A stretch of 64,000 nucleotides of DNA from Pseudomonadota bacterium (GCA_018896025.1 JAHIND010000004.1:66512-130511), one strand, 5' to 3'. Numbered from the stretch's first letter, positions 40,058 to 43,669 are shown. The notes: generated from the sequence alone by a model not told the origin. Numbers and translations are program-made.

Positions 40058-41185
40058 ATGCTACAAGACCGTCAACTGCATCAACTCGCGTCTATCCGAA
40101 CCACTCCCCACGCCACCCTGAGCTTGTACCTGGCCCTGGACCAATCCAGGGATCAGCGGCTTTTGGCCTTGGGTGACCTGATAAAAAGAAAGGAGCAGCA
40201 ACTGAGCGGCAACGGCACCGCCGCCATGTGGTCTGCCTTCAGCGACGACCTGCAAAAAATGGAGAGGCTGGTGGAGGAGTTGCCGGCCAGTCCGGGCCGA
40301 GGCTTGGCCGTGTTCGCCTGCGGTCCTGCGGGCCTGTTCGAGAGCCTCAGCCTGGAGGTGCCGGTAAGCAACCTGCTGGAGACCGGTCCGGCTCCTTATA
40401 TCCGCCCCCTGGCCGCCCTGGCCGGGGACCTCAGCCATACCCTGGCCGTGCTCCTGGACGGCAAACGGGCCCGCTTTTTCAGCTGCTTCCTGGGAACCGC
40501 CGAGGAATTGCCCGAGGCGGAGATCATCGGCGAGGCCGGTCCCACCCTGGAGGGCGGCAGCCAGGGCCGCACCGGCGACAGCCACCTGTCGCGCAAATCG
40601 GGACAGGCCAGGATGCGTTACCTCAAGGACGTGGCCATTCAGGCTCGCGGGCTCATGGAAAGCTCGGGCTACAAGCATCTGGTCCTGGGCGGATCGCACG
40701 CAGTGGTGGACGAACTGAGCGAGCAACTGCATCCCTATCTGGAGCAACGTCTGGCTGGAGAATTCAGCCTGGACATCACCGCCGGTCCCACTCAAGTGGC
40801 CCAGGAAGTGGCCCTGGCCTTGCAGGAGTCGCGGCGTAAAAACCAAGAGAAGCTGTTGGCCAACCTGGCCGACAACCTGGGGCCGGGCGGCCAGGCGGCC
40901 ACCGGGCTCAACCAGGTGCTGGGTGCCTTGTACGAGGGCCGGGTGCACACCCTGTTCGTGCGCCGGGGCCACACCGCGTCGGGCGGGTGCTGCCCCTCCT
41001 GCGGCCGCCTGCGCCACGTGGCGGGCCGCTGCCCCATCTGCAACCAGGCCATGACCCAGGTGGACGACGTGGTCAACCTGGCCGTGGCCGGGGCCCTGGT
41101 CGGCGGGGCCCGTTTGGAGCAGATCGACGGCGACTCACCCCTGGATGAGCTGGGTGGCGTGGCCGCCCTGCTGCGCTATGCTTAG
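40058..41185 (+). CDS. Bacterial archaeo-eukaryotic release factor-like protein (baeRF10 / Vms1-like)
   Basis: aeRF1-like layout: GLAVFA, PAPYIRPL, GGSQ loop, GLNQVL.AL.EGRVHTL, CPSC...CPIC, GGVAALLRY. Confidence 0.8.
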   Translation: MLQDRQLHQLASIRTTPHATLSLYLALDQSRDQRLLALGDLIKRKEQQLSGNGTAAMWSAFSDDLQKMERLVEELPASPGRGLAVFACGPAGLFESLSLEVPVSNLLETGPAPYIRPLAALAGDLSHTLAVLLDGKRARFFSCFLGTAEELPEAEIIGEAGPTLEGGSQGRTGDSHLSRKSGQARMRYLKDVAIQARGLMESSGYKHLVLGGSHAVVDELSEQLHPYLEQRLAGEFSLDITAGPTQVAQEVALALQESRRKNQEKLLANLADNLGPGGQAATGLNQVLGALYEGRVHTLFVRRGHTASGGCCPSCGRLRHVAGRCPICNQAMTQVDDVVNLAVAGALVGGARLEQIDGDSPLDELGGVAALLRYA

Positions 41186-41190
41186 GAGGT

Positions 41191-41676
41191 ATGGCTAAGA
41201 AAGACAAGATACCGGCCACGCCGGCCCTGCACGCCTTGAAGGGGGCCGGCGTGGCCTTTACTCCCCGCCCCTACGACTACGTACCCCACGGCGGCACCGG
41301 CGAGGCCGCCTCCCAACTGAAAGTGGACGAGCACCAGGTGATCAAGACCCTGGTGATGCAGGACGAAAGCGGGGAGCCCTTGCTGGTGCTCATGCACGGC
41401 GACAAGGAGGTCTCCACCAAGAACCTGGCCCGCCAACTGGGGCGCAAGTCGGTGGAGCCCTGCGCCGAGCGCGACGCCCAGCGCTACACCGGCTACCAGG
41501 TGGGGGGCATCAGCCCCTTTGGCATACGCCGCAAGATGCCGGTGTTCGTGGAAAAAGGCATCCTGGACCTGGAGCGGGTGTACATCAACGGCGGCAAGCG
41601 CGGCCTGCTGGTGGAGATAACCCCGGCGGTCTTGCTGAAGATGCTGAACCCCACCCCGGTGGAGGCGGCGCTTTAG
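41191..41676 (+). CDS. ybaK: Cys-tRNA(Pro) deacylase
   Basis: TPA, VIKTLV, TGYQVGGISPFG, INGGKRG. Confidence 0.93.
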   Translation: MAKKDKIPATPALHALKGAGVAFTPRPYDYVPHGGTGEAASQLKVDEHQVIKTLVMQDESGEPLLVLMHGDKEVSTKNLARQLGRKSVEPCAERDAQRYTGYQVGGISPFGIRRKMPVFVEKGILDLERVYINGGKRGLLVEITPAVLLKMLNPTPVEAAL

Positions 41677-41680
41677 ATAC

Positions 41681-42163
41681 TTACTCCGAGTCCTTGGCCG
41701 CCCCCGCTTCTTCCAACAACTCGCCCAAATACTTAGCCAGCTTGCCGGTAAGCTCGGTGCAGATGGTCCGGCGGCTGTCCGGCTGGCCGTAGAAGGTCTT
41801 GACCTCGTCCTTGGCCTTCCAGTTCACCCGGGCGATGTCCGCGCAGTTGGTGCCGCCATAAGGCTCGCTCATCTGGGCAAAGGCCTTGCTCAGCTTGAAG
41901 CTCAGGAGCCACATCTTGGGGTCGTCCTGTTCATCGGGACGGGACTTGCCGTAGCGAGCCGAGACCGCGGCGATGGCCCCCAAAAGAATGCCGCAGGTGC
42001 GGCCCGAGGAGGCGATGCCTCCGCCATAGGCCCCAACCGCCCGGACAATTTCCGGGCTGGACATGCCCATCTTTTCCAAGCCAACGGCCACCAGGGCCTG
42101 GCTACAGTGCATCCTTTTTTTAAAAAGCTCCTCGGCCTTGACGCGCATCTCCTCGGGGGTCAT
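41681..42163 (-). CDS. C-GCAxxG-C-C family protein, Cys form
   Basis: HCSQ (Cys20), GAYGGG, TCGILLG, NC, IC. Confidence 0.88.
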   Translation of the reverse strand: MTPEEMRVKAEELFKKRMHCSQALVAVGLEKMGMSSPEIVRAVGAYGGGIASSGRTCGILLGAIAAVSARYGKSRPDEQDDPKMWLLSFKLSKAFAQMSEPYGGTNCADIARVNWKAKDEVKTFYGQPDSRRTICTELTGKLAKYLGELLEEAGAAKDSE

Positions 42164-42209
42164 GCATCTTCTCCCACTGTACGATGTTGCTCCACTCGCC
42201 CAATCGCCC

Positions 42210-42689
42210 CTAGCCTTCGGGCCAGGGACGGTTATCCTCCAACATCTGTCCCAGGTAGACCGCCATGTCGCAGATCAGGCTCTCGCAGCGCCGCCTGGTG
42301 CTGTCGGGCGCGGTGCGGAACCAGGTGAGCTTTTCCCGGTCGTTCAGGTCGAAGCCCAAGATGCAGCGGCAATCCACCCCGCCGTAGGGGGCGGTCAACT
42401 CCTCGAACCGCTCCACCAGGCTGCGCGACAGGGCCTTGAGCTTGGGGTCCTCCTGCACAGTGGGGTCGCCGGTTCCGTAGAGGCTGGCCACCATGCCCAC
42501 CGCCCCGGTGAGGATGCCGCAGACCCTTCCGCTGCGGGCCACTCCCCCCCCATAGGCACCCATGGCCTTGATGATCTCCGGGTTCACCCGCCCGGCCTTT
42601 TCCTGGCCCACGGCCAGGATGGCCTGGCTTCAATGATAGCTTTGATTGAACAACTCCAGGGTGCGCCTACGAATCTGCTGTGGGGTCAT
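42210..42689 (-). CDS. C-GCAxxG-C-C family selenoprotein (Sec at codon 20, UGA 42632-42630), 159 aa
   Basis: GGGAGA RBS + ATG 42689 reads MTPQQIRRRTLELFNQSYH-UGA-SQAILAVGQEK..., colinear with neighbour MTPEEMRVKAEELFKKRMH-C-SQALVAVGLEK; SECIS-like hairpin follows. Confidence 0.85.
42601..42629 (-). promoter_or_regulatory. Bacterial SECIS-like element
   Basis: 8-bp stem UCCUGGCC / GGCCAGGA with G-initiated GUG loop starting 18 nt after the UGA. Confidence 0.75.
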
Positions 42690-42723
42690 GATGTCTCCCA
42701 AGGATATTGCCGCCGGCTGCCGC

Positions 42724-43482
42724 TCAGGCTGCCGCGCCAAAGCTGGCCACGGTGTAGGTGCCGCTGCGGGCGTCTTTGTTCAGGGTGACGATGCCCTGCT
42801 TTTCCGCGTCCAGGAGCAGGTCTGAGAAGGAACGGTAGCCGTGGTAGGACTCGTCGAAAGAGGGCTGCTTGCGCTTCATGGTGTCCTTGACCATGGAGGC
42901 GTAGATGATCTCCTTGTTTTCCCGTTGCAGGGCCAAGAGCGACTGGATGACCAGTTGAAAGACTTCGCGCTTGGCCAGGGGCAGGCCCTTGGGCAGGGAG
43001 GGAGGCTGGCTGTTCTGGCGCTCCAGGTCCTCGTAGTAGACGAACTCGTCGCAGTTGTCGCGCAAAAGGTCGCTGGTGGAGGCCTTCATGCCCAGGCCGA
43101 TGACCCGCTTGCCGTTTTCCTTGAGTTTGCTCACCAGGGGGGAGAAGTCGCTGTCCCCGCTGACGATGACGAAGGTGTCCACGTGGCCCTTGGAGTAGCA
43201 AAGGTCGATGGCGTCCACCACCAGGCGTATGTCCGCGCTGTTCTTGCCGGTTTGGCTGCGCTTGGGTATCTCGATGAGTTCCACGGCCAACTCGTGCATC
43301 TGGTGCTTGTAGTTGCCGTAGCGGGTCCAGTCGGCGTAGGCCTTCTTGACCACCACCTTGCCCTTTTCCACAAGGCGCTCCAGGATCAGACGGGCGTCGA
43401 AGTTTTCCTTGCGGTTGTTCAGGCCCAGGGCCAGGTTTTCAAAATCGATGAACACGGCCAACGTGTGTTCGCTATCGGGCAA
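42724..43482 (-). CDS. NYN domain (LabA/DUF88) protein with C-terminal OST-HTH/LOTUS domain
   Basis: FIDFEN, KNSADIRLVVDA, VSGDSDF; FDESYHGYRSFSDLL. Confidence 0.9.
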   Translation of the reverse strand: MPDSEHTLAVFIDFENLALGLNNRKENFDARLILERLVEKGKVVVKKAYADWTRYGNYKHQMHELAVELIEIPKRSQTGKNSADIRLVVDAIDLCYSKGHVDTFVIVSGDSDFSPLVSKLKENGKRVIGLGMKASTSDLLRDNCDEFVYYEDLERQNSQPPSLPKGLPLAKREVFQLVIQSLLALQRENKEIIYASMVKDTMKRKQPSFDESYHGYRSFSDLLLDAEKQGIVTLNKDARSGTYTVASFGAAA

Positions 43483-43669
43483 AATTTCCTCCTGGAATTT
43501 GGTGGCGCCCCGGTATGGGCTTTTGCTCCCCTCCGGTGTAAGTTACCATACCTTGAACATTGGGGGCACACGCAAGGTGCGGCCTTGCTATTTGGTCGCT
43601 TACGTGCTCAAAATTGAGCATCCGTCCCCAAGACGTGGATGAGCCTGAAAACCCAAAAAGGGGGTTGCC

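Follow-up and report, generated by a model that had tools for sequence, protein, structure and literature searches.

The locus

We analyzed a 64,000-nucleotide (nt) stretch of DNA from a Pseudomonadota bacterium (GCA_018896025.1, JAHIND010000004.1:66512-130511), here called the window, and in it a tandem pair of genes that encode proteins of the C-GCAxxG-C-C family. The first of the pair, gene 1, has an in-frame UGA at codon 20, and the second, gene 2, has a cysteine codon at the same place. Our conclusion is that gene 1 is a genuine bacterial selenoprotein gene that has been cut short by callers of open reading frames (ORFs), and that its UGA is read as selenocysteine (Sec); we put the probability of this at about 0.88. 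The coordinates of the features are collected in Table 1. Homologous loci from other genomes and metagenomes are designated by L numbers (L001, L002, and so on).

Starting from its ATG, gene 1 consists of 19 sense codons (MTPQQIRRRTLELFNQSYH), the TGA, 139 further sense codons, and a TAG at 42212-42210, which gives a product of 159 amino acids (aa) with Sec at codon 20. A mechanical ORF call starts instead at the GTG at 42611 and yields 133 aa, which is 26 codons short. That GTG lies in the loop of the hairpin described below, and by sequence inspection it has no Shine-Dalgarno (SD) sequence ahead of it. A TGGGAGA motif precedes the ATG of gene 1 in the window and also in L001 to L004. Thus, the sequence agrees with the original prediction, which had placed a ribosome-binding site (RBS) and an ATG at 42689, followed by 19 codons, an in-frame UGA, and the rest of the ORF.

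Gene 2 starts 46 nt downstream of gene 1 and has the same architecture. The two products are 45% identical over 152 residues without a gap (BLASTP). The ungapped alignment puts the UGA of gene 1 at Cys20 of gene 2 (H-U-SQA versus H-C-SQA), as had been predicted.

Table 1. Features of the tandem pair and its surroundings in the window
Feature	Coordinates	Strand	Basis or remark
Gene 1, full predicted selenoprotein coding sequence (CDS), C-GCAxxG-C-C family	42210..42689	minus	Translation; Pfam PF09719; orthologs with the same TGA
SD-like GGGAGA of gene 1	42699-42694	minus	4 nt 5' of ATG 42689-42687
In-frame UGA, codon 20, predicted to be read as Sec	42632-42630	minus	Aligned with Cys20 of the paralog; TGA in homologs
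Conserved site residues of gene 1	U20; C57 42521-42519; C107 42371-42369; C135 42287-42285	minus	
SECIS-like hairpin	42619-42601 (5' arm UCCUGGCC 42619-42612; loop GUG 42611-42609; 3' arm GGCCAGGA 42608-42601)	minus	Fold
Gene 2, Cys paralog, 160 aa	41681..42163 (ATG 42163; stop 41683-41681)	minus	Pfam; BLASTP
Cys20 of gene 2 (TGT)	42106-42104	minus	
RBS of gene 2, GGGAGAAG	42175-42168	minus	
Upstream NYN/OST-HTH (LabA-like) gene	42724..43482	minus	Pfam; synteny in L001, L002, L004, L037, and L115
Recombinant/mosaic segment	41590..42490	minus	Sliding identity; protein identities

Conservation of the UGA and of the codons upstream of it

Homologs were collected by a profile-based scan of genomes and metagenomes, and distinct forms were counted. 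At the position of codon 20, 73 distinct homologs have TGA and 12 have a Cys codon (TGC or TGT). We looked for orthologs with another residue at this site, which would mean that gene 1 is a nonsense pseudogene, and there were none. At the same locus, codon 20 of gene 1 is TGA in three genomes of the GTDB and in the cultured Desulfoferula mesophila. An identical 141-nt sequence that includes the RBS, the ATG, the TGA, and the hairpin is present in three independent assemblies from groundwater metagenomes; this exact recurrence excludes sequencing error as the source of the TGA.

The 19 codons upstream of the UGA contain no in-frame stop in any of the 73 TGA forms; the other two frames are stopped in 72 and 54 of the 73. 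There is an ATG at the position of the gene 1 start codon in 71 of these 73 forms. Across the upstream codons of the Sec forms, the proportion of nonsynonymous differences (pN) is 0.25 versus 0.83 for synonymous differences (pS), and variability at third positions dominates. Downstream of the UGA, pS falls to 0.61, as expected if an RNA element overlaps the coding sequence there. Gene 1 is under coding selection on both sides of the UGA, and the UGA is aligned with the Cys of homologs, which is the pattern by which bacterial selenoproteins are recognized.

Of 34 homologs in the databases, 32 lack their N terminus and are entered as proteins of ∼133 aa (range, about 121 to 138 aa) that start at or after the Val of the hairpin loop. 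Among them are D. mesophila FAK_32010 and entries from metagenome-assembled genomes (MAGs) at NCBI that are named "C-GCAxxG-C-C family protein." The truncation of the Sec forms is systematic and is the same mis-annotation that affects gene 1.

A hairpin downstream of the UGA

Where a bacterial UGA is recoded as Sec, an mRNA hairpin, the Sec insertion sequence (SECIS), helps in this. In the bSECISearch model, the loop of this hairpin lies 16 to 37 nt from the UGA and has a G among its first two bases. The hairpin of gene 1 has 8 Watson-Crick pairs, with the stem beginning 10 nt and the loop 18 nt past the UGA. The original prediction had an 8-bp hairpin with a G-first loop starting 18 nt downstream. 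The pairs and the loop are as it described, but the 18 nt is the distance to the loop and not to the stem. When compared manually with the SECIS criteria, the gene 1 hairpin is a stem-loop at a proper distance with a G in its apical loop, and its covariation is weak.

We estimated how often such a structure would be found by chance. A perfect 8-bp hairpin with a G first or second in a loop 16 to 37 nt downstream occurs at 8 of the 1624 TGA trinucleotides in the window (0.5%), and this rises to 4% when G·U pairs are allowed (the window is 64% G+C). Taken alone, therefore, the hairpin is only suggestive of a SECIS. When the alignment to Cys and the comparisons that follow are added, the agreement is far beyond chance.

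Numbering the U of the UGA as 1, we scored pairing in a fixed register (14-21/25-32). At least 7 of the 8 pairs are kept in 68 of 73 Sec forms versus 1 of 12 Cys forms. When 64 Sec forms were aligned without gaps, the share of paired cells was 93.2% in this register versus 32 to 68% with the register slid by 1 to 3 nt. For a null expectation, the peptide was kept and codons 25 to 31 were redrawn from the codon usage of the same genes in 2000 resamplings. The Sec forms have 7.45 pairs versus 6.18 ± 0.12 expected, a value that was reached in 0 of the 2000 resamplings, whereas the Cys forms are at the null (5.17 pairs versus 5.31 expected). The choice of synonymous codons in the Sec forms is correspondingly narrow: Ala27 is GCC in 94% (background, 47%), Gly29 is GGC or GGU in 93% (background, 60%), and Gln30 is CAG in 93% (background, 66%), while the stem Val is GUY and the loop Val only GUG or GUU. 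In three Cys forms that have the identical peptide CSQAILAVGQEK, GGG and GCA or GCG codons break the stem. Gene 2 of the window likewise has no hairpin at this place (ALVAVGLEK, CUGGUGGCCGUUGGCUUGGA). These comparisons show that the position-fixed hairpin is under selection at the RNA level only where the codon is UGA, as a SECIS predicts. The SECIS-like hairpin of the original prediction is thus present.

Two further features of the region are recorded here as side observations. In a minority of Sec forms, L070, L072, and L081 from metagenomes, the Leu codon CUU, the Gly codons GGG or GGA, and the Gln codon CAA (nt 14 to 33 after the UGA) break the standard register. The same codons allow a stem shifted by one position, UUCUUG/CAAGAA, with an 8-nt loop, which may be an alternative SECIS register reached by correlated codon changes. 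Also, Glu31 is GAA in 88% of the 73 Sec forms versus a background of 59%, and a conserved A-rich tract, GAAAAR, follows the stem (nt 31 to 36 after the UGA; 42602-42597 in the window). Pairing does not explain the bias at Glu31 because position 33 is outside the helix.

We propose that the ribosome would start at the ATG at 42689 and decode the UGA at codon 20 as Sec. The UCCUGGCC-GUG-GGCCAGGA hairpin of the mRNA, 10 to 32 nt downstream, would act as the SECIS element and would presumably recruit SelB·GTP·Sec-tRNASec to the ribosome. The predicted product is a cytoplasmic all-alpha protein of 159 aa in which Sec takes the place of the first Cys in an invariant set of four (U20, C57, C107, and C135).

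Family membership and predicted structure

With the U entered as C, gene 1 scores 76.6 bits against the Pfam model PF09719 (C_GCAxxG_C_C), and gene 2 scores 71.0 bits; the cut-off is 27. This places the hidden selenoprotein in the family to which it had been assigned. Across 20 full-length homologs, the positions C20(U), C57, C107, and C135 do not vary, and they stand in the order of the family signature, C...C-G-A-x-x-G...C...C; in gene 1, the second motif reads C57-G-I-L-T-G, with Ile for Ala. Neither gene reaches the cut-off of TIGR01909 (47.4 bits): gene 1, with C for U, scores 46.9 bits, which is 0.5 bit short, and gene 2 scores 41.4 bits. The shortfall of gene 1 is probably due to the placeholder residue and to its divergent clade. 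The best-scoring model is NF045669 (DVU_1555 family C-GCAxxG-C-C protein), with 85.3 bits for gene 1 and 83.5 bits for gene 2, both below its cut-off of 103.

That Sec forms of the family were already known, as the original prediction held, is clear from the name of TIGR01909, "C-GCAxxG-C-C family (seleno)protein," which allows for Sec, and from the literature. A study of the Olavius symbionts described three Sec genes with SECIS elements and called the product, in the delta-1 symbiont, a "putative redox protein" (Zhang and Gladyshev 2007; PMC1976440). The family is listed in reviews from 2022 and 2026 (PMC9312934 and PMC13188914), the latter of which distinguishes a "form 1" and a "form 2." Gene 1 is, then, a newly found, mis-annotated member of an established selenoprotein family.

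The AlphaFold model of gene 2 (predicted local distance difference test score [pLDDT], 89.7) is all-alpha with eight helices, and positions 20, 57, 107, and 135 are at or beside helix N termini. A Foldseek search of the PDB with this model gave nothing at E < 0.001, and 1H21 was not among the matches at that level. The only sequence-profile match in the PDB was to 1H21, the split-Soret cytochrome c, and it was weak (E = 1e-4). The extra cysteines of that cytochrome reportedly bind a novel [2Fe-2S] center, a finding attributed to a 2003 paper by Abreu et al. that PMC5701242 cites. We infer that U20, C57, C107, and C135 could form one redox-active site. It may be a metal or Fe-S center with a selenolate ligand, or it may be a selenol/thiol redox center; we rate the two about equal.

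The tandem pair and a Sec/Cys allele swap

In a neighbor-joining tree of 92 family members, the orthologs of gene 1 and the orthologs of gene 2 form separate clades. Every member of the gene 1 clade has Sec, and none occurs without a gene 2 beside it. The pair occurs in the same order, with a spacer of ∼46 to 50 nt, in at least eight Desulfarculaceae-like lineages. Four of these have Sec in gene 1 and Cys in gene 2 (window/L035, L009, L010, and L115), and four have Sec in both (L008/L036, L011, L037, and L004, which is the cultured D. mesophila). By these criteria, genes 1 and 2 are old, anciently diverged, distinct paralogs. The Cys alleles of gene 2 are one subclade nested among Sec alleles; therefore, the change from Sec to Cys, with loss of the hairpin, is the derived one. 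Cys forms also turn up in several further parts of the tree, evidence of repeated switches.

A reversed tandem pair was seen in L024, a Desulfarculaceae MAG (JAIPEN01, ∼970-2000). Its upstream member is a gene-2-like Cys form, and its downstream member is a divergent Sec form (T-U-SQT) that is sister to the gene 1 clade.

Comparison with the closest relatives revealed a mosaic. The window and L001 have ∼96% nt identity in both flanks, and the flanking proteins are 94 to 98% identical, but from ∼42490 to 41590 the nt identity drops to 74 to 85%. Against L002, the identity instead rises across gene 2 (about 42189-41490) to 93 to 99% from a flank level of ∼90%. The gene 2 alleles of L001 (Sec) and the window (Cys) differ in 23% of their residues, although the two genomes are near-identical elsewhere. 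This identity profile shows the mosaic origin of the segment, and homologous recombination brought the Cys allele of gene 2 into this genome.

The C-terminal half of gene 1 (42290-42490) is itself a hypervariable mosaic, with 65 to 82% nt identity versus 90 to 97% around it when L001 to L003 are compared. Here, RCI(L/V)GFDL(N/G)DREKL(T/H)WF is common to the window and L003, and ACIVEIDFNDEQKRRWF is common to L001 and L002, a distribution that cuts across the relatedness of the flanks.

A broader proposal is that gene 2 carries a standing Sec/Cys polymorphism among near-identical populations of groundwater Desulfarculaceae (∼96% nt identity in the flanks), with alleles ∼23% apart in aa sequence, a SECIS with the Sec allele only, exchange by recombination, and Sec possibly a metal or Fe-S ligand. 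We advance this tentatively and consider it unlikely as a whole. If it were true, the alleles might be maintained by a fluctuating selenium supply, and the protein would be an all-alpha fold without a solved structural relative whose metal or Fe-S center would be novel.

What the two genes do for one another can be read in two ways. The first, which is compatible with Sec decoding in gene 1, is that their products are an obligate heterodimer that jointly builds the active or metal site. The strict tandem order and short spacer across the Desulfarculaceae-like lineages fit this, as does the fact that the gene 1 clade never occurs without gene 2 while most other family members are single-copy. 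However, homologs present in single copy evidently function by themselves or as homo-oligomers, and the two genes have had different recombination histories here, less than one would expect if they were closely co-adapted. We regard a heterodimer as conceivable but on balance doubtful.

The second is the earlier idea of a selenium-availability backup, in which the two proteins are interchangeable isoforms and the Cys copy serves when selenium is scarce. The adjacency of one Sec and one Cys copy in one genome suggests it, the same arrangement recurs in the four lineages given above, and there is precedent: the Vhu/Vhc and Fru/Frc hydrogenases of Methanococcus are Sec/Cys isoenzyme pairs. Yet paralogs with only 45% identity and separate ortholog clades are poor candidates for isoforms, and gene 1 has conserved features of its own (VARSGRVCG, APDSTRRRCE, and an NRPWP tail) which argue that they are not. 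In half of the lineages, the cultured D. mesophila included, both genes have Sec and there is no Cys copy to serve as a backup. The one short intergenic spacer that the genes share gives no sign of separate regulation. Finally, the Cys gene 2, being derived and recombinant, stands in for the Sec form of gene 2 and not for gene 1. A backup role is, in our view, quite improbable, and this part of the original prediction finds no support here.

Decoding of the UGA

Several results weigh against Sec decoding in gene 1 or against details of it. Where the hairpin is concerned, true compensatory covariation is sparse, consisting of 3 G-C to A-U changes at pair 19-27, and the remainder is wobble or invariance; the stem overlaps the conserved peptide LAVGQE. 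In 16 of the 64 aligned Sec forms there is a U·C mismatch at pair 18-28, and RNAalifold, when run on these 64 forms, did not return the hairpin as the consensus. For the 42 nt that follow the codon, the difference in overall folding energy between Sec and Cys forms was not significant (P = 0.16), and an Rfam search of the hairpin region gave no family match, only noise at E > 1. As for the chemistry of the site, the evidence consists of the invariant cysteines, the positions at helix N termini that they take when the paralog is modeled with AlphaFold, and the weak match to 1H21.

The machinery for Sec insertion is a further point. By logic, a host that decodes Sec must have selA, selB, selC, and selD; our searches covered the window and the fetched loci. 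ARAGORN found no tRNA-Sec in the 64-kb window or in any of the fetched loci, an Rfam scan returned tRNA-Ala only, and Pfam searches of ten neighboring genes gave no sel genes. Searches of the literature on Desulfarculus and Desulfoferula gave nothing useful about selenocysteine or selenoproteins. From the metatranscriptomes of the groundwater study, only short, diverged fragments mapped to the locus.

We also asked whether the window has any other selenoprotein gene. Two scans for ORFs that continue through an in-frame TGA with coding-like G+C content at third codon positions (GC3), followed by inspection of the translations of the best candidates, gave only shadow-frame artifacts.

If the UGA were not read as Sec, it could be a true stop, in which case gene 1 would be a nonsense pseudogene or would encode the 133-aa product from the GTG at 42611, without the first Cys. 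This is the form given by gene callers and by most database entries, and UGA is an ordinary stop elsewhere in the genome: TGA ends ∼24 of the 60 ORFs that were called heuristically, the upstream NYN gene among them. But a true stop would not be conserved in 73 distinct sequences behind an open exon that is under purifying selection and has its own ATG and SD. The alternative GTG has no SD and sits inside the hairpin loop, its product would be without one of the four Cys positions that do not vary, and a stop leaves the hairpin-preserving codon choice without an account. We consider a true stop highly improbable. That near-cognate or reassigned decoding puts an ordinary amino acid (Trp, Cys, or Gly) at the UGA deserves equally little credence: UGA is the leakiest stop codon and has been reassigned in some bacteria, but here it stops ∼40% of the called ORFs, homologs show only Cys at the site and never Trp or Gly, and only the UGA forms show selection for a hairpin at a fixed position. 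Moreover, the Thermodesulfobacteriota are among the lineages richest in selenoproteins (PMC13188914). Sec remains by far the best reading of the codon.

Gene neighborhood

The gene upstream of gene 1 encodes an NYN/OST-HTH protein. Its stop is a normal UGA, 34 nt ahead of the gene 1 ATG, and the two genes are probably in one transcription unit. L003/L010 (JAHLLJ010000053.1) does not have this gene, with 0 to 18% identity over the region matching 42700-43490 of the window; therefore, it is not an obligatory partner.

On the other side, at 40058-41676 on the plus strand, a gene for a baeRF_family10 protein (375 aa), a bacterial protein like archaeo-eukaryotic release factors, is followed 6 nt on by a gene for a YbaK-like protein with an aminoacyl-tRNA editing domain (161 aa). 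These two genes run toward the selenoprotein pair, the facing stop codons being only 5 nt apart, and the arrangement is syntenic in L001 to L004 and L115. That translation-related genes adjoin a recoded gene may be coincidence.

The neighborhoods of four lineages outside the Desulfarculaceae clade gave no conserved context and no functional hint. A promoter and terminator scan found nothing above the shuffled expectation. Farther away, at about 51300-54400, the window has ORFs with a GC3 of 0.70 to 0.73 versus 0.85 to 0.93 elsewhere, with large gaps between them; this region may be foreign or non-coding DNA.

Significance and comparison with known systems

These results leave the current understanding of selenoproteins unchanged. 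What is modestly new is the dominance of Sec in this subfamily (73 versus 12), the systematic truncation (32 of 34), the conserved paralog pair, and the recombinational Sec/Cys swap. The Sec forms of the family are heavily under-annotated, and the truncated entries are without the residue that is most likely catalytic. Sec and Cys alleles in near-identical genomes, with matched loss of the hairpin, offer a clean comparative system for how a SECIS within a coding sequence is kept and lost. For a widespread domain of unknown function, the position of the Sec also singles out U20/C20 as the functionally critical residue.

Gene 1 has the same Pfam domain, size, and four conserved Cys positions as the known C-GCAxxG-C-C selenoproteins, and it shares with them the Sec/Cys pair, a hairpin after the UGA, and a deltaproteobacterial (Thermodesulfobacteriota) host (PMC1976440 and PMC13188914). 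It differs in belonging to a divergent, Desulfarculaceae-specific clade; in addition, we found no description of the tandem arrangement or of the recombinational Sec/Cys swap in the publications on the family that we consulted. A second relative is the HUGP/GUXX-star fusion selenoprotein (NF045501). Its N-terminal half aligns with residues 4 to 137 of gene 1 (E = 2.4e-8), and its name points to an H-U motif, which gene 1 has as H-U-S-Q. However, gene 1 scores only 33.8 against a cut-off of 325, and NF045501 is a 236-position fusion with a second Sec-containing module at its C terminus that gene 1 lacks.

The likeness to the split-Soret cytochrome c of Desulfovibrio desulfuricans ATCC 27774 (1H21) is confined to part of the site. 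The alignment takes in C57 with its CG(A/I)xxG motif and the final Cys with its RxxC motif, and it stops short of the first Cys, which is the Sec position. The cytochrome is a 247-aa periplasmic dihaem protein, whereas the genes here have neither haem motifs nor a signal peptide.

A bacterial SECIS for comparison is that of E. coli fdhF, whose GGUC loop begins 18 nt after the UGA. Like it, the hairpin of gene 1 is directly 3' of the UGA within the coding sequence, its loop is 18 nt after the UGA and starts with G, and its upper stem is stable and G+C rich. Unlike it, the gene 1 hairpin family has a 3-nt loop (GUG or GUU) in place of GGUC, no bulged U, and no conserved lower stem; the lower stem that can be drawn for the window is not kept in its relatives.

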